Shown piece by piece: positions 2,119 through 47,579 of a stretch of 64,000 nucleotides of DNA (its first letter is position 1; the number at the start of each line of letters is the position of its first letter). The DNA lies in the NCBI GenBank assembly GCA_039809385.1, contig JBDHUY010000001.1, positions 96,001-160,000 on the forward strand. The letters run 5' to 3'. This DNA is from Candidatus Altimarinota bacterium. Its GTDB lineage: Bacteria; Patescibacteriota; Gracilibacteria; JBDHUY01. The position numbers were made by a program, and so were the translations under genes. The notes below the pieces were generated by a model that was not told the DNA's origin, did not search any database, and worked only from the letters and a program-made list of their open reading frames with translations.

Positions 2119-3812
2119 ACCAGCTTTTTGTTTAAGACGTCGCGGGTAGTCTGGCCGACCCGGCCGGCTCCCGTGGCTTGAGCTGAAGGAACCACGGCAT
2201 GATCTTGTTGGAATTGTAATAAGGCCTCTTTGGTCTTAGCGGCAAATTTGCCGGTAACGTCTTGTTTGAAATAGCCGAGCTTAGAGAGAATACTCTGTAA
2301 TTTGGCCACTTCGATCCCCTGGGTGCCGGGATCGAGTTCGGTGGTGATCTTTTGTTGTCGGTACTTGGAAAGAACATAGGCCAATTTCTCGCGAGTTTTG
2401 GGGCCATAGAGACTGGCACCGGGACTCTGGGGGGAACCGGCCAGCTTGAACTGCATTTGAAAAGAGAGTACCGCGGCAGAGGTTTTTGGACCGTAATACC
2501 CGGTAGGCGTGGCATCGAGATAGCCGAGTTCAAACAAAGTTTGCTGCAATGCCCGGACTTCGTCCCCGCTGTCTTTGGATTTGAGAATTTGAGATATCTG
2601 GCTCGAGACAGACGTCGTAGCACTTTTTGACGGAGTATTGGGGGGCACAGCGCCCGGGGCTGGGTTGGCAGATGAAGCGACAACGGCGGTTTTGGTACTC
2701 TGTCCGGCCTGAAAGAGATCTTCAACCAGATATAGACGGGTCTGATTGCCAAAATAACCGGCACCCCGGTCGGTATCTTTCAATATGATTCCTTTCTGTT
2801 TCTGGAAAGAGAGTACGGCTGCATAGGTGTTGCTATCATATTTTCCGGTTTCAGAAACCGCAAATCCCAGACGGTTGAGGGCCTGCTGCAAAGTGAGAAT
2901 ATCTCCTTTTTGACCCGATCCTTTGCCCAGTCCGACCGGAAAAGAAGAAAGCATCTTCTGTTTTTCGGTTTTTTGCGCGGCCAGAGAGCGGCGATCCTGT
3001 TCTTTTTTTTCGTAAAATTTCTGTTCCAGGACTTTACGGGTTTTCTGCCCGGTATACCCGGCACCGCTCTCCTGGTCGCCTTTGACGATTCCGTTATCAA
3101 CCTGAAAACGATACACCGCATCGACGGTTTTGACATCGTAGCTTTGGGCATCGGGGGTTTCCATATACCCCAGTTCGGTCAGCACTTCGTGGAGCTTTTG
3201 GACATCGCTGCCCTTATCGCCTTTACCTAAGTTGCGGGAAAAAAGCGTGGTTGAATTGGTGGCATTTTGCGGCCATTTGACTTTGGCGATGGCTAAATCT
3301 TCGACCTGGATCGTATCATTCAGTTCGGTACCGGACGGGTAAACATACCCTTCAACCTTACGGATGCCCCAGCTCAGAGCCCGCTTGAGCCCCTCTTCGC
3401 CATAGCCCATCCACAGATCGAGGCGATCATAGGAGTGCCCCCGTTCTCCGGCTACGACAATGGCGCCGCCGCGGTCTTCCACGGTTCCGATGCCCAGTCC
3501 TTCCAGCTTGATCTTGGTACCGAACGCATAGGTTTTAGGCGCGGCGATCATGCCGTCGTGCACTCCTTTGCCCGAGGCGCCCCGGATGCCTTGTCCGTTC
3601 AATTTTTTCTCGTCTTCCACATTTCCTCTCAAATAAAACGACTGCCCTTCCTGGGGAGAATAATACCCGGTCACCAGAAAGGTCCTCTTTTCGGGTTGAG
3701 GCGTTTCGGCCAGTGCCGTATCAACAGAACCGGGAAACAGAAAGGCTGTTTCGGCCAGGGAAAGAGACAGCACGAACAGAAGTATTTTTGGTATGTTTTT
3801 GTATATTTTCAT
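2106..3812 (-). CDS. Secreted 3D-domain (MltA/RlpA-like) protein with multiple peptidoglycan-binding repeats
   Basis: Signal peptide; VTGYYSP...MIAAPKTYAFGTKIKLEGLGIGTVEDRGGAI...RLDLWMG (3D domain); four repeats of type GD.G..V..LQ..L..LGY...TG.Y...T..AV..FQ. Confidence 0.85.
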   Translation of the reverse strand: MKIYKNIPKILLFVLSLSLAETAFLFPGSVDTALAETPQPEKRTFLVTGYYSPQEGQSFYLRGNVEDEKKLNGQGIRGASGKGVHDGMIAAPKTYAFGTKIKLEGLGIGTVEDRGGAIVVAGERGHSYDRLDLWMGYGEEGLKRALSWGIRKVEGYVYPSGTELNDTIQVEDLAIAKVKWPQNATNSTTLFSRNLGKGDKGSDVQKLHEVLTELGYMETPDAQSYDVKTVDAVYRFQVDNGIVKGDQESGAGYTGQKTRKVLEQKFYEKKEQDRRSLAAQKTEKQKMLSSFPVGLGKGSGQKGDILTLQQALNRLGFAVSETGKYDSNTYAAVLSFQKQKGIILKDTDRGAGYFGNQTRLYLVEDLFQAGQSTKTAVVASSANPAPGAVPPNTPSKSATTSVSSQISQILKSKDSGDEVRALQQTLFELGYLDATPTGYYGPKTSAAVLSFQMQFKLAGSPQSPGASLYGPKTREKLAYVLSKYRQQKITTELDPGTQGIEVAKLQSILSKLGYFKQDVTGKFAAKTKEALLQFQQDHAVVPSAQATGAGRVGQTTRDVLNKKLVQFL

Positions 3813-38735: not shown

Positions 38736-40544
38736 ATGAACTCCGAAAAACTGCAGCAAAGATTTCCGGATATCTACCAAACCTTTTTTCAGCAGGCTCC
38801 GCTGGTAGCTGCTGCTCCTTTTTCCATGACCTGGATGACCGACAGCAGCATTCGTTTTCGGGGTGCGGTGATTCGTCAGAAAATTCCGCTGAAGGGATAT
38901 GTGGGAGTGGAAGAAACAGGACAAGCGGGTGAAATTTCGCTGGGTACGGTAACCTGGTATGAATCCGGACAGGACCGGTTCTCAACTCCGGCGCCTTTAT
39001 CGTCGATCTTTGCTCAGACCAAGGAAGTAGCGAAGTATATGGAGTCTCATTTTTCCGTAAAGCTAGGCTCGCGGGGTATTCGCTTCCATGCTCTGCTGGA
39101 AATGGCGATTGACCGGGGGATGAGTTGTCATGCCACTCTGACCGCCTTAATAGCGTTTCTGCTCTGTTATAGGACGAACCAGGTCAGCTCCGAGCAAATC
39201 AAACAATGGAGGGACGTGTCGGTGGAAGAACTGCTGAAAAATGACACATATGGTTTCACGAAGGTAGCCGAACACGGCCGTAATATGGATCACATTACCA
39301 AATACGGCAATACCTGGGGTACCGGGGTGATCTCCAGTCTGGTTCCTTCCAGGTTTCCTTTTGTCACGTTTCCTCAGCAAAAACCGGAAGTAAACTTGGA
39401 AGAGATCATGAAAGAAAAGATGGACGTACTCTCCTACCGCCTCAACGAACTATTTCCCCAGCTGCCTCGAAAAGTATCGTGGCCTATCGACTATGCGATC
39501 ATCTTTTCGGGGAAACTCTTGAATTTGGAAAATTCTCTGCAGAAAACTCTGACAAAAAGCAAAGAACTAGAAGATATACAAGCTCATTTACGGCTCATAA
39601 AAGCAGAACAGGTAGATAAGACCGCGTTATTTACTATGAAAGTTAAACAAACAAACAGCTTTGAAAATACGTTTTTAGAGACGAACGCAATCGTATCGCT
39701 CATGCTGGTATCACAACTTGCAAAAATGATGTTAAAAAGCCACGATGAACGTGAAGCAGAAATGTTTATTGAATATATGAAAAAACGCCACAGTGCCGCC
39801 ACAGTGATGGATCCGGTATCGCCCTACATTACCAAATTTCTTGCCCGTTTAAATAGTCAATTGGCCTCCGGAAAACAGTATAACAACTATGCTACATTTT
39901 GCTTTGACGATATTACTTTAGGAGGAAGCATTGGATTCGTAAGCTTAAAAGGGATACAACGGGATATATTCTCAAATACGGCCAACAAGATTGTCAAAGA
40001 ATTTCCAGTCTCATCAATCGATTATATGAGTTGGGAGGACGGCAGCTGTGATGATGGTGTAGAGATATTGCAAGATATTGAAAAGAAAACCTTTTCTCGT
40101 TACATACCCCCGGAAAGCATAATCATGAGTAGATTTGAAGGAAAAACCTCCCCTCAGCGCCTCCTTACTTCCCATAGTGCCGTAAACATTTCAGAAACAA
40201 CGGGTCTGGTCTTGGACACCATACAAGAAAAAATATTCATTAACGGTGTAGCTCCTACGAGTAAAGAACTTCACTCACACAAAGTAACAATTCAGCTTCT
40301 ACGATTTCTGCTTTCGTCGAAGAATCATGAAATTAGCAATAAAGACCTGCCTCGCTCGGCATATTCTCTCAGCAAAAACGAGATGGAAGGGAAAATTGTT
40401 CGCCCCTTTAACTCACTAATAAAAACCAAACTTGGAAAAGACGAAAACTTCCTCATATGCATTGGAAATAATACAGATTTTTGTGTATATATGAATATGA
40501 ATACTATCAATATAAATCTATATCAAAAACTGTTTGAGTTTTAA
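38736..40544 (+). CDS. GHMP-kinase-fold protein (degenerate motifs) with possible C-terminal winged-helix domain
   Basis: APFSMTWMTDSSIRFRGAVIRQKIPLKGYVGV resembles GHMP motif I; MAIDRGMSCHATL resembles PxxxGLxSSA; C-terminal LVLDT..KIFING...LLRFLL...ISNKDL resembles OmpR-type wHTH. Confidence 0.55.
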   Translation: MNSEKLQQRFPDIYQTFFQQAPLVAAAPFSMTWMTDSSIRFRGAVIRQKIPLKGYVGVEETGQAGEISLGTVTWYESGQDRFSTPAPLSSIFAQTKEVAKYMESHFSVKLGSRGIRFHALLEMAIDRGMSCHATLTALIAFLLCYRTNQVSSEQIKQWRDVSVEELLKNDTYGFTKVAEHGRNMDHITKYGNTWGTGVISSLVPSRFPFVTFPQQKPEVNLEEIMKEKMDVLSYRLNELFPQLPRKVSWPIDYAIIFSGKLLNLENSLQKTLTKSKELEDIQAHLRLIKAEQVDKTALFTMKVKQTNSFENTFLETNAIVSLMLVSQLAKMMLKSHDEREAEMFIEYMKKRHSAATVMDPVSPYITKFLARLNSQLASGKQYNNYATFCFDDITLGGSIGFVSLKGIQRDIFSNTANKIVKEFPVSSIDYMSWEDGSCDDGVEILQDIEKKTFSRYIPPESIIMSRFEGKTSPQRLLTSHSAVNISETTGLVLDTIQEKIFINGVAPTSKELHSHKVTIQLLRFLLSSKNHEISNKDLPRSAYSLSKNEMEGKIVRPFNSLIKTKLGKDENFLICIGNNTDFCVYMNMNTININLYQKLFEF

Positions 40545-41958: not shown

Positions 41959-42904
41959 CGTTCTCTTTCAGATCAAATGCGACATAGCGAATTGATGAGG
42001 GGTGAGCATATTAAGGGATAAATGGGGTCGTTCGTGGTGGTAGTAATGGAGGTAGTCGTTGATCTTCTGCTGCAGCCAGGGCAGGTCTGATTTTTTGTAT
42101 TTGATATGACCCACACATTCTTTCCTCAGGATTCCGTTAAATCGTTCGATAAATGCCTGTTCATTCTTTTTGTACGGTCGTGCTGTTCTGAGCCGTATCC
42201 CCAATCCTCTTACTCTTCTTTGCCACTCGGCTTTGAACTCCGGTCCGCCATCCCGTTGCGCGTGTTCCATGTGTCCATAAAACTTCAACTGTTCAATAAA
42301 TGCTTCTTCTCCGGCTTTTGCTGTTAATCGGTCTTTCAAGATTACCGTTCCTTCTCTGGTACAAATATCAATCGACGTAAACGCATAAATATCTCCCAAA
42401 TCCACCGTATCAAATTGTAATGCTTCCCGAGCTCTGCTTGCTTTCAATACCGTTTTACCACGTACTACATTCTTCTTCCACTTACTGCGTAAAACATATT
42501 TCTCATTCAGAATTCGATAGATCGTGCTCCCCGAGACTTTTGTCCCATATTCTTTCTTCAAGAAATATTGAATCTTTTCTCCACAGCATTCGTGCCGCTC
42601 TTCCCGAATCTTCCAGATGTACCGTTTGGTTATCGGATCGGTTTCAGTTCTTTTTCGTTTCCCTTGCTTGGCCCGGGTAAAATCTCTCAAAAATATTTTG
42701 ATCCCTTTCTTCTTCATTCCATTGATCCATCGATACACCGTGGCTCGGTGTACTCCTATCTGCTTTGGTATCTGCTCTGGTGATATTTCGTTCTTGTACA
42801 AATTCCAGCATACATACATCTTCTCTATTGTTTTCATGTCCATAGGATTAGTAGCTTCCTTCTACTATTCTACCCTATGTCGCATTTTTAAAGAGAATAC
42901 AACG
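41959..42904 (-). mobile_element. IS481-like insertion sequence
   Basis: Imperfect terminal IRs (CGTT...AAATGCGACATAG / CTATGTCGCATTT...AACG); 5-bp direct repeat ATCTA at 41954-41958 and 42905-42909. Confidence 0.8.
41968..42843 (-). CDS. DDE (rve) transposase with N-terminal HTH
   Basis: GVHRATVYRW, QFDTV, QRDGGPEF, FIERFNGILRKE, YHHERPHLSL...TP. Confidence 0.93.
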   Translation of the reverse strand: MDMKTIEKMYVCWNLYKNEISPEQIPKQIGVHRATVYRWINGMKKKGIKIFLRDFTRAKQGKRKRTETDPITKRYIWKIREERHECCGEKIQYFLKKEYGTKVSGSTIYRILNEKYVLRSKWKKNVVRGKTVLKASRAREALQFDTVDLGDIYAFTSIDICTREGTVILKDRLTAKAGEEAFIEQLKFYGHMEHAQRDGGPEFKAEWQRRVRGLGIRLRTARPYKKNEQAFIERFNGILRKECVGHIKYKKSDLPWLQQKINDYLHYYHHERPHLSLNMLTPHQFAMSHLI

Positions 42905-42925
42905 ATCTATTATTTTTTATTAGAA

Positions 42926-44116
42926 TTACTCCGCGCTATTCTGAAGATTATTATATACATACTCTAACATTGAAGCTACGAGCGAATTGGTAACAATTGT
43001 ATCCCGCAGTCGCTGTAGCTTCTGATGGACAAGTTCGCACACAAGCTCGTTTACCTTTTGAAACGTAACATAACGCTGCCATTCGATAATTTCCTGAGGA
43101 GTGGCATTCGTAATGCTGAGGTGCTCCCCCACTTGAATCGGAAATCCTCTCTTGCCGTGAATTACCTGAGCCAGATTCCCCTGGACGGAAGCCAAATATA
43201 ACGCTCGTTTGGCATGATCGGTGATCATAGCCTTACTTCCATTCACAGCCACAATCGTACCTTTTTCTTCGCTAAAAGCACTCGTACGCTTGGCGACACA
43301 CAGCAACGTACCTCTTGCATCCCGTACCGCGATACAACATCCTATCTGAAATTGCTCTTCATCCAACTCGACCCGCAGGTTACCAAATTCACAACTTTCG
43401 GTAATAACTCCCAATCGTAAGGGACTTTTTTCAATTTCCTCCTCTATCTTTTCGGTATCAATGGGGTTGCCAAGTTGTTCGAAACCATATCCTCTGGCGA
43501 TACCAGCTCCGGCCGGAGCGAATTTGCTCGCTCCGTCAAACACGTCACCCCCACGTTTTTCCGTAAGTCTCAGTCCGATCAGTTTTTCCAAAGAGATTTC
43601 ATACACCTTTGCCTCGGCAAGTTTACCATGACCGTGAAACTCCGGCACCCGCATGTACCAACGAGCCGGACCGACAAGTATCAATCCGGATGGGTATTGA
43701 ATCATAACCCGTTTGCTTCCAACGTTGGAATCGTTCTCGTCATTTTGACCCACATGCGGATCGATAGTGATCACAAAAATAGCTTTACTACTCGATATTC
43801 TATCTTCAACGTATGCCGAAAGAGTGTGAGCAGCAGCTGTGAGGTTAAAGTTCTCTACTTTGTTGGTACGAATGGGAATAGGATTATCCGCCAAGATATA
43901 TTCCATGATCGCAGCCTGTTGGTTGAGCGATTCAGAATTGAGGTCGGCAATCGTAATAATCTGACAGGACAATTGCTCACCAGATTCTTTGAAATCAGGA
44001 AGAACCGTGCCTTTATTGGGGAGATTGGAGCGAGAATTCGCATTTGGATATACCGAAGTTTCGGTCTGAACATCGGGAGTATCAGAAAAAGAAGTTTGGT
44101 TCTTTAGAGTAGACAT
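42926..44116 (-). CDS. Divergent SAM hydrolase / SAM-dependent halogenase (DUF62) family protein
   Basis: IFVITIDPHVG..GSKR (cf. VVDPGVG..R), LVGP (cf. GPDNG), VFDGASKFAPAGAGIARG (cf. TFHGRDIFAPAAA.LA.G), CEFGNL (cf. D.FGN), LYLASVQGN (cf. LEIA.N.GN). Confidence 0.75.
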   Translation of the reverse strand: MSTLKNQTSFSDTPDVQTETSVYPNANSRSNLPNKGTVLPDFKESGEQLSCQIITIADLNSESLNQQAAIMEYILADNPIPIRTNKVENFNLTAAAHTLSAYVEDRISSSKAIFVITIDPHVGQNDENDSNVGSKRVMIQYPSGLILVGPARWYMRVPEFHGHGKLAEAKVYEISLEKLIGLRLTEKRGGDVFDGASKFAPAGAGIARGYGFEQLGNPIDTEKIEEEIEKSPLRLGVITESCEFGNLRVELDEEQFQIGCCIAVRDARGTLLCVAKRTSAFSEEKGTIVAVNGSKAMITDHAKRALYLASVQGNLAQVIHGKRGFPIQVGEHLSITNATPQEIIEWQRYVTFQKVNELVCELVHQKLQRLRDTIVTNSLVASMLEYVYNNLQNSAE

Positions 44117-44139
44117 ACCAGAAAAAGAAATGAGATAAT

Positions 44140-44170
44140 AAAAAACAGCCTCCGAAATGGTCGAAGGCTG
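44140..44170 (-). terminator. Attenuator terminator of Met leader
   Basis: Minus strand CAGCCTTCGA-CCAT-TTCGGAGGCTG-TTTTTT, 23 nt upstream of the DUF62 start; 3' arm TTCGGAGGC exactly repeated in the leader (44207-44215). Confidence 0.85.
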
Positions 44171-44195
44171 CTTGTTTTAAAGGGGATAACGCACT

Positions 44196-44315
44196 TTAAA
44201 CCATTTGCCTCCGAAGCAGACGCATCATCATCATTATCGCCATCATCATGTACCCGGTACGACAAATGTTGTTAACCGAAACTTCCTGTGATGGAATGTT
44301 TGAATACCGGGACAT
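44196..44315 (-). CDS. Putative methionine attenuator leader peptide (39 aa)
   Basis: MSRYSNIPSQEVSVNNICRTGYMMMAIMMMMRLLRRQMV*; 7 Met in 9 consecutive codons. Confidence 0.82.
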   Translation of the reverse strand: MSRYSNIPSQEVSVNNICRTGYMMMAIMMMMRLLRRQMV

Positions 44316-44339
44316 AGAAAGAAAAAAGATTTTTACATC

Positions 44340-44367
44340 ATCATAATCGTCAAAAAAAGTTTGTCAA
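44340..44367 (-). promoter_or_regulatory. Sigma70-type promoter of Met leader
   Basis: Minus strand TTGACA-N16-TATGAT, 24 nt upstream of the leader ATG. Confidence 0.65.
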
Positions 44368-44569
44368 AAAATTCCCGAAGAAATTCCTACAATTCATTCT
44401 ATTCTTGTAACAAGTGTATTATTATGAGAGTTTATACAATAATTAGTAGCTTATAATTTAATACCTCCATCCTTGAAGGCAGATCAGTATCATTTTCAAG
44501 TTTTCCGTGATTTTTTAATTTCACCGAAAATGATAAAATAAAGCAACTATAAAACTTCATTCATTCTTC

Positions 44570-44597
44570 TTGCCACCGCAAACCCCGCTGCTATAAT
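44570..44597 (+). promoter_or_regulatory. Promoter of tRNA-Thr
   Basis: TTGCCA-N16-TATAAT with extended -10 TGn. Confidence 0.6.
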
Positions 44598-44660
44598 GTC
44601 CCTGCATTTTTAAGATGGAAAAGTCGGAGCAGTCGCTCTGAGAACAAAGAAATGCTGAAT

Positions 44661-44735
44661 GCCGGAGTAGCTCAGTGGTAGAGCAATGCTTTCGTAAAGC
44701 AGTGGTCGTGGGTTCAACTCCCATCTCCGGCTCCA
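44661..44735 (+). tRNA. tRNA-Thr(CGT)
   Basis: GCCGGAGTAGCTCAGTGGTAGAGCAATGCTTTCGTAAAGCAGTGGTCGTGGGTTCAACTCCCATCTCCGGCTCCA; loop TTCGTAA; one mismatch at top of anticodon stem. Confidence 0.9.
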
Positions 44736-45086
44736 GGGGGAAATAGTATAAAGTATCTGGTATTAGGTATCTAGTATAGTGCCGAATAAGTAAACCACGT
44801 GCGGAAACATGAGTCCGGGGTTTTTACAGATAAGGACGTTTGACTCTTGACCTCCAAGACCTGTCCATTCACCCATTCCCGAGTCCTCATGCCCCTGCTG
44901 TTGGCTGTAAGCTGTCAGCTCTGTGTTTTGGCTAATCGCCACTACCCGCCTGTCACCGCTGTAAGCTGTTCGCTGACCGCTGAACGCCGCCCGCCTGATT
45001 TGTCCCTTGCCTTTTACCTGCTCTTTTTCTATAGTAGAACACGCTTATCAAACGACCTCTTATTTTCTATTTATCTAAAACCTGTT

Positions 45087-47579
45087 ATGAAGACCCGTTC
45101 GCGTTTTATCCTCATCCTGATCGTATTTGTATTTTCCTTGCTGGTAGCGTTGCCTTCAAGCGTAAAAACCACCGCCTTCCGCGCGGTAGGACTGGAGAGT
45201 AACGGGGTTGCCCAGTGGTTGAGCAACCAGCAGATCAGCCTCGGACTGGATTTACAGGGAGGTACGCAGCTCGATTACAAAGTCGACCTCAGAGACGTCC
45301 CCCAAAGAGATCGAAACCAGGTCATCGAGGGAGTCAAAGCCGTATTTGAAAAACGAGTTAACGGTCTGGGAGTATCCGAACCGAATATCTATACCTCCGT
45401 GGTAGGCAATGAAGAGCATATTATCGTTGAACTCGCCGGTATTACCGATATCAATGAGGCAAAAGCCACGATCGGGAAGGTGATTCAGCTCGAATTCAAA
45501 GTACAGAACGATGCCCAGGAATCGGATCAAAAGAGCCAGATCAAAAAGCAAGCCGAAGCGGTCCTGGTAGAAGCCAAAGCTAGCCCTCAAAACTTCGAGA
45601 CGATCGGCAAGGAAAACGAAAAAGCCAGCCGGGTCGAGTACAAACAGGAAAGCAACTTTCTGGACGCTGCTCCCGGTCCTGTCCAGAAAATTCTTCCCAC
45701 GCTGGCTGAGAATCAGGTGAATCCGGAACTGGAGGAAGGCCAAACCGAGAGCACGTTCGAATTTGTAGACGGACAGGTACGGGAAGTACCGGCCAAGCAG
45801 GGGTACTTTATTGTAAAAGGCATATCCAGCGAACCGGTTTTGCGACCCGATCCTAAAAATGCGGAAGATTTTCTAAAGGCAGGTCAGGAAGTATCGACTG
45901 ACAAAAAAGTAGACCTCGGCTTCGTGCGCAAAGGAGACTTGGATCCCGAACTTCAGGACAAAGTATTTTCCCTCTCGGCCGGCAATATTTCGGATGTCCT
46001 GGAAACATCCAAAGGCTACTATATTGCCAAACTGGTTCAGACGCTTCCTAAGGACGAGGAAATGATCCGGGCGGATAGTATCCTGATCAAACTCAAACCG
46101 GAACAACCGACCAAGACCATCGATGCCAGTCTACCCGATGCCGAAAAGCAGAAATTGGAAGAAGAAAATACAAAGATTCTGGCTGACAACGGGAGTGCCA
46201 AAAAATATAACGAGGAGGAAGCACCGAAACGAGCGCAGGAAGCCCTGGAAAAAGCCAAAGCCGATCCTGGCAGTTTTGCCGAGTTGGTAAATCAATATTC
46301 CGACGATACCGCCGCGAAGGCACACGGAGGCGATATGGGTTTCTTTACGAAAGACCAGCGCGCTCCCGAAATCGCGGAAAAAGCCTTTGGCGCCAATAAG
46401 GGCGACCTGATTCCGGAAGCAATCAAAACCAGCGAAGGATACTATATCCTGCGCGTAACCGATAAAAAGGCCAAAGACGAAGAGATTGCCCGGGTTCAGA
46501 TGATTCAGATCTGTGGAAACGAGCAAACCGGCTGTACGGCAAGCCTAAGTAAGAGCGAAGCCAAAACCAAAGCCGACGAGACCCTCAAACGAGTGCGGGA
46601 AGAAAAGAAATACACCTATGCCTACATTTACTTTTCAACCAATCCTGATCCGTGGAAACCGGCTCTGGCCACGAATCCTATCACCAAAGAACAAGAACCG
46701 CTGACCGGAAAATTCTTCAAACGGGCCGATCTGCAATACGATTCGCGCACCTTCGAACCTGTCGTAGTTATCTCGTTTAACGACGAAGGCGCCAAAATGT
46801 TCGAAGAGTTAACCGGCCGCTTGGTCAATCAACCTCTCGCTATTTTCGTCGGAGGAGAACTGATTTCGGCTCCGACGGTCAACGACAAGATCAGCGGGGG
46901 AAACGCGACCATCTCGGGACGATTCAGCGACGAGGAAGCCGCTAAATTACAGCGTGATTTGAATGCCGGCGCGATCCCGGCTCCGATTACGCTGGTCGGC
47001 GAACAGGAGATCGGCGGATCGGTCGGGACCGAGGCTCTCAATGCCTCGCTGAAGGCCGGATTGATCGGCATACTAGTACTGATTCTCTTCATGATTTTGT
47101 ATTACCGACTACCTGGTTTGATCGCCAGCTTAGCTTTAGGGCTCTATGTAATTGTTTTCATTGCTTTCATCAAACTCTGGCCCGGCATGGTCATGACCCT
47201 GGCCGGAATTGCCGGTGTGATCCTGTCGATCGGTGTAGCGGTAGACGGCAATATTCTCATATTCGAACGCGTACGTGAAGAGCTTTCTCTTGGCAAGACG
47301 CTGAATGCGGCACTGAAAGCCGGATTTGAACGAGCCTGGACTTCGATCCGGGATTCCAACTCGTCTTCGATTTTGACCGCAATCATCCTGTTGTGGTTTG
47401 GAACCAGCATTATCAAAGGATTTGCCTTCATGCTGATCGTCGGCGTAGTCTTGAGCTTATTCAGCGCCATCTACGTAACCAGAACGTTACTATACGTTTT
47501 CAATACGTCGCGGTTTGAAAAGAACCTGTTCCTGTGGGGAGCCAAGAAACCGGTCGCCGAAGAAGGCAAGAAGAAATGA
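45087..47579 (+). CDS. secD: Protein translocase subunit SecD with inserted parvulin (PpiC) PPIase domains
   Basis: LGLDLQGG, RVNGLGVSEP, IIVELAG, LNAGAIP, TLAGIAG.ILSIGVAVDGNILIFER, IRDSN, IKGFA; inserted FAELVNQYSDD...GGDMGFF and DLGFV..GDL...ISDVLETSKGYYI; start ATG 45087. Confidence 0.95.
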   Translation: MKTRSRFILILIVFVFSLLVALPSSVKTTAFRAVGLESNGVAQWLSNQQISLGLDLQGGTQLDYKVDLRDVPQRDRNQVIEGVKAVFEKRVNGLGVSEPNIYTSVVGNEEHIIVELAGITDINEAKATIGKVIQLEFKVQNDAQESDQKSQIKKQAEAVLVEAKASPQNFETIGKENEKASRVEYKQESNFLDAAPGPVQKILPTLAENQVNPELEEGQTESTFEFVDGQVREVPAKQGYFIVKGISSEPVLRPDPKNAEDFLKAGQEVSTDKKVDLGFVRKGDLDPELQDKVFSLSAGNISDVLETSKGYYIAKLVQTLPKDEEMIRADSILIKLKPEQPTKTIDASLPDAEKQKLEEENTKILADNGSAKKYNEEEAPKRAQEALEKAKADPGSFAELVNQYSDDTAAKAHGGDMGFFTKDQRAPEIAEKAFGANKGDLIPEAIKTSEGYYILRVTDKKAKDEEIARVQMIQICGNEQTGCTASLSKSEAKTKADETLKRVREEKKYTYAYIYFSTNPDPWKPALATNPITKEQEPLTGKFFKRADLQYDSRTFEPVVVISFNDEGAKMFEELTGRLVNQPLAIFVGGELISAPTVNDKISGGNATISGRFSDEEAAKLQRDLNAGAIPAPITLVGEQEIGGSVGTEALNASLKAGLIGILVLILFMILYYRLPGLIASLALGLYVIVFIAFIKLWPGMVMTLAGIAGVILSIGVAVDGNILIFERVREELSLGKTLNAALKAGFERAWTSIRDSNSSSILTAIILLWFGTSIIKGFAFMLIVGVVLSLFSAIYVTRTLLYVFNTSRFEKNLFLWGAKKPVAEEGKKK

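Follow-up and report, generated by a model that had tools for sequence, protein, structure and literature searches.

A predicted methionine-codon leader-peptide attenuator upstream of DUF62-type genes in candidate-phyla-radiation bacteria

The DNA analysed in this study is a window of 64,000 nucleotides (nt) that covers positions 96,001 to 160,000 of contig JBDHUY010000001.1 in the genome assembly GCA_039809385.1 of a Candidatus Altimarinota bacterium. The minus strand of this window carries a divergent gene of the DUF62 or S-adenosylmethionine (SAM) hydrolase-like type, which is preceded by a promoter, a short open reading frame (ORF) with a run of methionine codons and an intrinsic terminator (Table 1). 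An earlier note on the sequence had interpreted this arrangement as a transcription attenuator responding to methionine, and the promoter, the upstream ORF (uORF) of 39 amino acids, the methionine run and the GC-rich terminator with a U-tract 23 nt ahead of the next start codon were all recovered where that note had placed them. The host genome comprises 26 contigs with a total of 1.87 Mb, a G+C content of 45.7% and a completeness of 95%, and its class-level relatives mostly possess genomes of about 1-2 Mb. The contigs holding the stretch originated from activated-sludge and wastewater metagenomes, and the named homologous loci belong to metagenome-assembled genomes of Candidatus Peregrinibacteria.

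Table 1. Coordinates of the features at the DUF62-type locus of the 64-kb window
Feature	Position	Strand	Description
Sigma-70-type promoter	44340..44367	-	TTGACA 44367-44362, 16-nt spacer, TATGAT 44345-44340; 11/12 consensus positions
Leader ORF (uORF)	44315..44196	-	39 codons plus stop; read from the sequence
5' stem	44248..44315	-	uORF start region 44315-44305 pairs with 44259-44248, just before and into the first Met codon; minimum-free-energy folds
Met-codon run, predicted to be regulatory	44249..44223	-	7 ATG in 9 codons
Antiterminator segment (segment 2)	44207..44215	-	exact copy of the 9-mer of the terminator 3' arm; begins 7 nt past the last Met codon
Intrinsic terminator	44140..44173	-	core 5' arm 44170-44161, loop 44160-44156, core 3' arm 44155-44146, T run 44145-44140
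Divergent DUF62 / SAM-hydrolase-like gene	42926..44116	-	396 amino acids; DPHVG and VFDG motifs, C-terminal helical extension

The promoter represents the best minus-strand site among six promoter-like sites detected by a consensus scan of 2.3 kb, although the promoter alone does not rise above chance since shuffled sequences contained 5.6 such sites on average. The ATG of the uORF is located about 18 nt past the expected transcription start in T-rich and G-poor surroundings that lack a Shine-Dalgarno (SD) sequence, and the start of the main ORF has the same context. Both starts are typical of the host genome, in which the regions upstream of start codons are T-rich and G-poor with a T at position -1 in 54% and in which the SD core was found in 23 of 799 long ORFs compared with a background of 0.098. 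The pattern of the Met run matched only once in the 64-kb window and in none of 100 shuffles, and a six-frame scan ranked the Met cluster of the uORF first in density over the entire 1.87-Mb genome. No other small ORF with a Met run was detected in this genome scan, the next best candidates being real Met-rich proteins or off-frame readings of an Asp-rich gene with DGNDD repeats. One terminator-like site was obtained in the scan of 2.3 kb; it is located at 44173..44143 and has a stem of 13 pairs, including 6 G-C pairs, and a hairpin energy of -18.6 kcal/mol; the T run ends 23 nt ahead of the ATG of the main gene at 44116.

The earlier note had pointed out that a 9-mer just after the Met run exactly repeats the 3' arm of the terminator, and this repeat was verified: the 9-mer TTCGGAGGC is present in exactly two copies in the window, at 44215-44207 and 44156-44148. 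At least two copies also arose in 22 of 100 shuffles of the 64 kb, so that the occurrence of the repeat is of little weight as evidence and it is the placement of the copies that counts. The folded 5' stem of the leader may act as a pause or anti-antiterminator element, and its sequence was not conserved in the other loci. The nucleotide sequence of the run was compared with contigs from two studies, of which a piece of X1 (43912-44400) and a piece of X5 (44046-44296) span the Met run with 0 differences and 0 gaps, X1 being possibly the source sample and hence not an independent confirmation. Contigs of four DNA runs showed no differences wherever they cover the stretch.

In order to place the leader in a comparative context, 1,884 genomes, all from one phylum, were searched overall, with searches covering the class of the window (401 genomes), the order of locus L002 (205 genomes), a sample of the phylum (401 genomes) and the class of locus L052 (401 genomes). 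The layout of a uORF with a Met run, an antiterminator segment, a terminator and a DUF62 gene was present in 27 of 40 informative DUF62-type loci of the phylum, and 26 of these 27 leader-bearing loci contain at least three clustered Met codons. Locus L049, in which the contig ends 103 nt upstream of the gene, and locus L057, the genome of which is flagged as unpublished, were left out of these counts. Within the clade of the window, the leader is found in six of seven loci (the window, L002, L003, L004, L005 and L011), so that the upstream poly-ATG uORF with terminator that the earlier note had proposed to look for in homologues is a recurrent feature of both the clade and the phylum. The small ORF with the Met run stands directly upstream of the homologue in L002, L003 and L004, and between the two lie a hairpin and a T run, the latter about 30 nt ahead of the gene. 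Additionally, the leader was detected at loci of other DUF62 subtypes (L013 and L016). The canonical TFHGRD motif is kept in the leader-bearing genes of L013 and L052, the latter of which derives from the phylum sample and represents a compact version of the leader, and L016 encodes TFDGRD. The upstream regions of L014, L015, L017 and L018 are devoid of a leader. Directly upstream of the canonical, leaderless DUF62 genes of L014 and L015, the sequence resembles a tRNA gene, as judged by eye.

A second class provided a larger set of compact leaders. The DUF62 gene was detected in 26 of 401 genomes searched in this class, and a small ORF with at least three Met within at most six codons is located directly upstream in 18 of 25 loci. 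Locus L058 of the same class, which was picked up by a covariance model, has a like layout with two internal Met codons. In comparison, the six frames of the 1.87-Mb genome contain 39 windows with at least four Met in nine codons, which amounts to an expectation of about 0.003 such windows per upstream region of 300 nt.

In each of the nine loci of the first set, the frame that encodes the Met run opens with an ATG upstream of it and closes with a stop codon 32-48 nt ahead of the 3' arm of the terminator. Reading the run one base later as an Asp (GAT) leader was rejected, as this frame has a start codon in one of the nine loci and no consistent stop. The antiterminator segment begins 4-8 nt past the last Met codon in seven of eight loci, and in 17 of 18 leaders of the compact class it overlaps or abuts the stop codon of the uORF. 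Moreover, L002, L004 and L052 possess an extra upstream copy of the terminator 5' arm inside the uORF, resulting in a four-segment design. A comparison of the close pair L002 and L004 revealed no substitution in the Met run or in any of the four pairing segments; several of the substitutions elsewhere alter the peptide. Apart from the Met run, the leader peptides have no conserved residues in common, and their lengths range from 7 to 39 (or 66) codons. Judged by the database protein P0012, the ATG that follows the terminator of L011 by 30 nt is in a different reading frame from the remainder of the DUF62-like ORF, which suggests a one-base frameshift or an assembly error near the 5' end (minus strand, about 1458-1520 in reversed coordinates).

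The pairing of the two alternative structures was examined for covariation. In a MAFFT alignment of 18 compact leaders, 88% of the cells of the terminator were paired compared with 71% in shuffles, a value reached by 0 of 500 shuffles, and three of six pairs were changed on both sides in a compensatory manner (score 0.437 versus 0.160, slid controls at most 0.147). A covariance model built from the compact class recovered its 18 training leaders and L058, and it also found the Peregrinibacteria leaders of L002, L013, L003, L011 and L004 with E values of 0.0025-0.051. Since the pairing register of the antiterminator shifts by one or two columns between rows of the MAFFT alignment (A5), a covariance-model alignment of 24 rows (A6) was used for this element. 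In A6, which was fitted to the antiterminator structure and thus favours it, 75.5% of the cells were paired compared with 60%, and seven of eight pairs were compensatory (score 0.442 versus 0.182, reached by 0 of 500 shuffles, slid controls at most 0.209).

Folding of the leaders was calculated with a masked ribosome footprint of 28 nt (A site -15 to +12), a size that is our own assumption. Full leaders at equilibrium were regarded as switching if the probability (P) of the terminator did not exceed 0.2 while the first Met codon occupied the A site and reached at least 0.7 with the ribosome at the stop codon. Such behaviour was obtained for six of nine loci of the first set and for 17 of 18 compact leaders, corresponding to 22 of 26 distinct loci. 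In partial transcripts cut before the 3' arm of the terminator, a ribosome placed at the first Met codon allowed the antiterminator to form in each of the five loci examined first, including the window. In the partial transcript of the window, the terminator 5' arm was paired upstream at 0.79 with a stalled ribosome versus 0.58 with a ribosome at the stop codon, and the duplex of antiterminator and terminator 5' arm has a predicted energy of -14.0 kcal/mol. The antiterminator duplex was better than at least 95% of 500 dinucleotide shuffles in six of eight loci and in 15 of 18 compact leaders.

The protein encoded downstream of the leader was assigned by profile and structure comparisons, as the earlier note had recommended. 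A profile of the 15-member family matched the DUF62 SAM hydrolase PH0463 (1wu8/2wr8) with an E value of 5.6e-8, and in the profile alignment DPHVG corresponds to DPGVG and VFDG to TFHG, which bears out the replacement of His by Asp that the note had read from the sequence. A word-indexed search of 5.8 billion sequences returned nine matching proteins, all nine with PF01887 in the precomputed Pfam column. The clade is rare, with nine clusters at E<1e-30 among 1.84 billion representatives followed by a wide gap to ordinary DUF62 proteins. An AlphaFold model calculated with an alignment of 102 sequences reached a predicted local distance difference test (pLDDT) value of 86.4 and a predicted template modelling (pTM) value of 0.82; an earlier model from nine sequences was poor (pLDDT 50.9) and was not used. 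All 27 matches of the model in the Protein Data Bank (PDB) at E<=0.001 are chains of DUF62 proteins, the chlorinase SalL or the fluorinase FlA, with template modelling (TM) scores of 0.72-0.81 normalised to the targets, whereby the input alignment of the model contained DUF62 sequences. According to this model, the 396-amino-acid protein has the two-domain DUF62 fold.

This two-domain fold is shared with PH0463 (PDB 1wu8/2wr8), MJ1651, StDUF62, SalL and FlA. As in the DUF62, SalL and FlA proteins, the motifs DP.VG, F.G and GS. are present, and Asp58 is invariant over the 102 sequences. Asp119 and Arg136 (or Lys135) line up with the Asp and Arg of the catalytic triad across a 9-residue insertion. 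In contrast to DUF62 enzymes, the clade of the window is characterised by Asp194 in place of the triad His, by an invariant His within DPHVG, by an insertion of about nine residues after DPHVG, by a disordered N-terminal tail and by a C-terminal pair of long helices. The Pfam scan yielded no match of the 396-amino-acid protein to the C-terminal domain SAM_HAT_C.

The genetic background of the host is relevant to the role of such an enzyme. The host genome encodes a SAM synthetase (MetK). Genes for S-adenosylhomocysteine (SAH) hydrolase (AdoHcyase), MetE, a MetH-type methyltransferase domain, the PNP_UDP_1 family, which includes methylthioadenosine (MTA)/SAH nucleosidase, and MetQ were not found, an absence that is not proven because the genome is 95% complete. 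In a methionine auxotroph lacking SAH recycling, a SAM hydrolase is the only route leading from the SAM pool back to methionine. DUF62 enzymes convert SAM to adenosine and methionine according to the available part of PMC10491745. In the accessible portions of PMC12120602 and bioRxiv 10.1101/2025.08.29.672840, a preference of DUF62 enzymes for the inactive (R,S)-SAM epimer is described, and removal of this epimer is debated as their real role.

The anatomy of the locus, the conservation and covariation across many genomes, the reading frame and the protein fold together indicate that the locus is quite probably a ribosome-mediated (leader-peptide) transcription attenuator with methionine as the regulatory codons, acting on the gene of a DUF62-fold enzyme. 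In the proposed mechanism, transcription would start about 18 nt ahead of the 39-codon leader ORF. With Met-tRNA(Met) in plentiful supply, the ribosome would pass the Met run to the stop codon and cover the segment located just after the run, the terminator hairpin would then form, and RNA polymerase would halt at the T run, which ends 23 nt short of the gene. If charged tRNA(Met) became scarce, the ribosome would stall early in the Met run and the downstream segment would be free to pair with the emerging 5' arm of the terminator. Pairing of the antiterminator would block the terminator, and the gene would be transcribed. Stalling at the Met codons and read-through are thus predicted, as is the reaction of the enzyme in the clade without the triad His. 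Since MetK is present and genes for methionine synthesis and SAH recycling were not found, the circuit would release methionine from SAM in times of methionine shortage, the source being either the SAM pool or SAM that is inactive or imported.

A number of results weigh against this interpretation, in addition to the assumed ribosome footprint and the alignment that favours the antiterminator. The leader is missing from 13 of the 40 DUF62-type loci, among them L012 of the window's own clade, where the gene begins 12 nt past the upstream gene and one in-frame TAG lies inside the genome-search match. The covariance model of the compact class missed the window, L005 and L016 at E<=1. The antiterminator duplex of the window was equalled in 48 of 500 dinucleotide shuffles and that of L005 in 218 of 500. 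The ribosome-masked folding proposed by the earlier note gave a divided answer for the window: the antiterminator formed on the partial transcript, and the terminator of the full leader kept a P of 0.92-0.99 at every ribosome position at equilibrium. An equilibrium switch was likewise not observed for L004 and L011. For these three loci, in which the terminator dominates at equilibrium, the folding supports only a kinetic switch; the copy in the window, with its long run, is biased thermodynamically towards the terminator and would have to act kinetically.

The physiology and the enzyme raise further objections. Methionine shortage also limits the charging of the initiator tRNA and hence the start of translation of the leader itself. 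As SAM is made from methionine, a net gain of methionine needs imported SAM, the inactive epimer or the sacrifice of the SAM pool. The Pfam domain SAM_HAT_N matched the 396-amino-acid protein with 26.0 bits, just below the gathering cut-off of 26.3, and every one of the 15 family members has Asp194 at the position of the triad His. The available part of PMC10491745 describes this His of the His-Arg-Asp triad as strictly conserved among DUF62 hydrolases. With Asp in the place of this catalytic residue, the chemistry of the window's clade may differ, and SAM hydrolysis by its members is putative.

The specificity of the leader was analysed in the window genome and in five other genomes. A search of the latter for a run of ATG triplets with a T run 55-80 nt later resulted in 42 rows. 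Besides the DUF62 leaders, the best-looking rows (L033, L046 and L048) turned out to be coding or off-frame sequences and were rejected. Attenuator-like sites that combine a Met run with a T run were thus detected in these six genomes solely before the DUF62 gene, with a narrow search pattern by which other leaders could be missed. An additional Met-rich sequence was noted at G000 C3:23293-24462 (+), where a 389-amino-acid ORF has long Met-rich stretches with many repeats of the M-M-x-M type and possibly encodes a metal-binding secreted protein.

This restriction to DUF62 genes bears on an improbable alternative, according to which the leader is a general sensor of translation coupling without methionine specificity. 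Any drop in uORF translation would then free the antiterminator, and the ATG run would be a row of in-frame start codons aiding ribosome loading in a genome that lacks SD motifs (23 of 799 ORFs). A downstream gene that always specifies a DUF62 enzyme, with methionine as product, and the lack of such a leader at any other gene of the six genomes are at odds with a general sensor. The ribosome-free P of the terminator, 0.00-0.06 in L003, L005 and L016 and 0.00-0.01 in 8 of 18 leaders, agrees with it, whereas L002, L004, L011 and the window terminate by default without a ribosome and are unfit for a pure mode in which absent translation switches the gene on. The shortest possible uORF of L005 starts at the Met cluster itself, as expected for a loading site, but an ATG start is located well upstream of the run in nine of nine loci and the Met runs are broken by whole codons only.

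A functional Met-rich peptide encoded by the small ORF, for instance a precursor or substrate of the DUF62-like enzyme, with a leaky hairpin terminator adjusting the amount of peptide relative to that of the enzyme, is considered very improbable. Many peptide-modification operons likewise consist of a small ORF, a terminator and an enzyme gene in succession, and the position of the uORF is conserved, but a peptide under selection is difficult to reconcile with the variable length and the lack of conserved residues besides the Met run, with the non-Met codons that change amino acids between L002 and L004 while the RNA pairing segments are invariant, and with the covariation between the segment after the run and the terminator arm. 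Least credible of all is a simple-sequence repeat, either a contingency or phase-variation tract or a product of chance, next to the ordinary terminator of an upstream transcript, since the trinucleotide nature of the ATG repeats and the end of one X10 contig at 44212, beside the repeat, are outweighed by the identical contigs from two studies (X1 perhaps being the source sample), by 26 loci of distant genomes in which the feature recurs but is interrupted differently and by the lack of a minus-strand gene that ends just upstream, the neighbour being a tRNA gene on the opposite strand.

The attenuator reading can be compared with the classical trp, his, leu, thr, pheA and ilv attenuators, with which the leaders share a promoter-proximal short ORF, a cluster of codons for one amino acid and a terminator with a predicted, mutually exclusive antiterminator. 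L002, L004 and L052 show the full 1:2 / 2:3 / 3:4 arrangement through an additional upstream segment. The leaders differ from the classical systems in the use of Met codons, in the control of a salvage-type hydrolase rather than a biosynthetic operon and in their hosts, which are uncultured SD-less bacteria of the candidate phyla radiation. To our knowledge, methionine is not among the amino acids of the classical leader peptides. Methionine control is usually attributed to MetJ, SAM riboswitches and T-boxes. A SAM/SAH riboswitch or T-box was not detected by Rfam matches at E<=10 in positions 42000-46000 or at E<=1 in six related loci, and none of the Rfam leader families matched the leaders at threshold. 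At L002, positions 2594-2661 (+), a sub-threshold match to Leu_leader (30.3 bits versus 50, E 0.011) was observed on the antiterminator/terminator part.

Published leader peptides for sulfur amino acids were found in actinobacteria. The available part of a comparative study of Actinobacteria describes Cys, Trp and Leu leaders and no methionine element, listing methionine as riboswitch-regulated (PMC1262725). The actinobacterial cys/cbs leader ORFs with Cys codons presented there resemble the leaders described here in sensing a sulfur amino acid by codon runs near the stop of a short ORF; as far as that part of the study shows, they lack conserved terminator hairpins, whereas the present leaders have intrinsic terminators with T runs (PMC1262725). 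A 'metL' leader peptide is annotated upstream of metNIQ in Streptomyces lividans TK24, in the accessible text a prediction for a single genome (PMC8079986). Both 'metL' and the leaders of this study are proposed methionine-dependent leader peptides before a methionine-supply function. According to the same text, 'metL' contains two internal Met interleaved with Cys codons and, in the authors' words, lacks a typical Rho-independent terminator (PMC8079986), in contrast to the runs of 3-7 Met, the clear terminators and the conservation and covariation across 27 loci observed here. The remark of the earlier note that it knew of no characterised Met-codon attenuator has to be qualified by the predicted 'metL' (PMC8079986). 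'metL' was the sole related claim found in the part of the literature that was searched for Met leader peptides, so that an earlier description is possible. Within these bounds, the Met-codon attenuator as a conserved and previously undescribed variant of leader-peptide attenuation is well supported.

Leader-peptide attenuation is textbook knowledge. A conserved and covarying attenuator with Met codons would fill the methionine gap in the list of sensed amino acids, and the objection that the start of a leader also needs methionine would not be prohibitive, as these leaders indicate. It would add a rare defined cis-regulatory RNA switch in bacteria of the candidate phyla radiation, in which few regulators are recognised. 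With a length of about 90 nt and a modular build, the leaders could find use as methionine-responsive parts. The regulatory logic moreover provides a clue to the purpose of DUF62 enzymes, as a methionine-starvation switch on DUF62 genes would point to methionine recovery as the selected function. A more far-reaching view, for and against which we regard the arguments as evenly balanced, is that Met-codon attenuation may be a phylum-wide device of candidate-phyla-radiation bacteria dedicated to DUF62 enzymes, that the much-debated physiological role of these enzymes, at least in these methionine auxotrophs, may be the emergency recovery of methionine from SAM (own, inactive epimer or host-derived), and that the clade with DPHVG and VFDG but without the triad His may be a new catalytic variant with the same job.

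The genes adjacent to the locus differ between the window and its relatives. An insertion-sequence-type transposase with rve_3, HTH_32 and rve_2 domains is encoded directly downstream of the DUF62-like gene at 41968-42843 (-), where L002 (4025-4348), L003 (4035-4358) and L004 (3644-3877) hold a conserved gene for a protein of 107 amino acids; the locus of the window may therefore have been rearranged. The product of the 107-amino-acid gene matched the insert domain of a NIF3-related protein (2gx8, E 4e-34) and had no Pfam match. A search of the genome of the window with this query did not detect the gene, which was therefore not counted as part of the system.

On the other side of the locus, between the leader promoter and the SecDF gene, a tRNA-Thr (CGT) gene is located at 44661-44735 (+), with a promoter-like site matching 11 of 12 consensus positions just before it at 44570-44597 (+). 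The following ORF at 44847-47579 (+) encodes a SecD/SecF-type export protein with two PpiC-type rotamase matches inserted in its periplasmic part, and its listed TTG start is probably too far upstream. Two ORFs of about 600 amino acids without a Pfam family, located at 38736-40544 (+) and at G000 C2:66927-68753 (-), have similar N-termini and appear to be paralogues.

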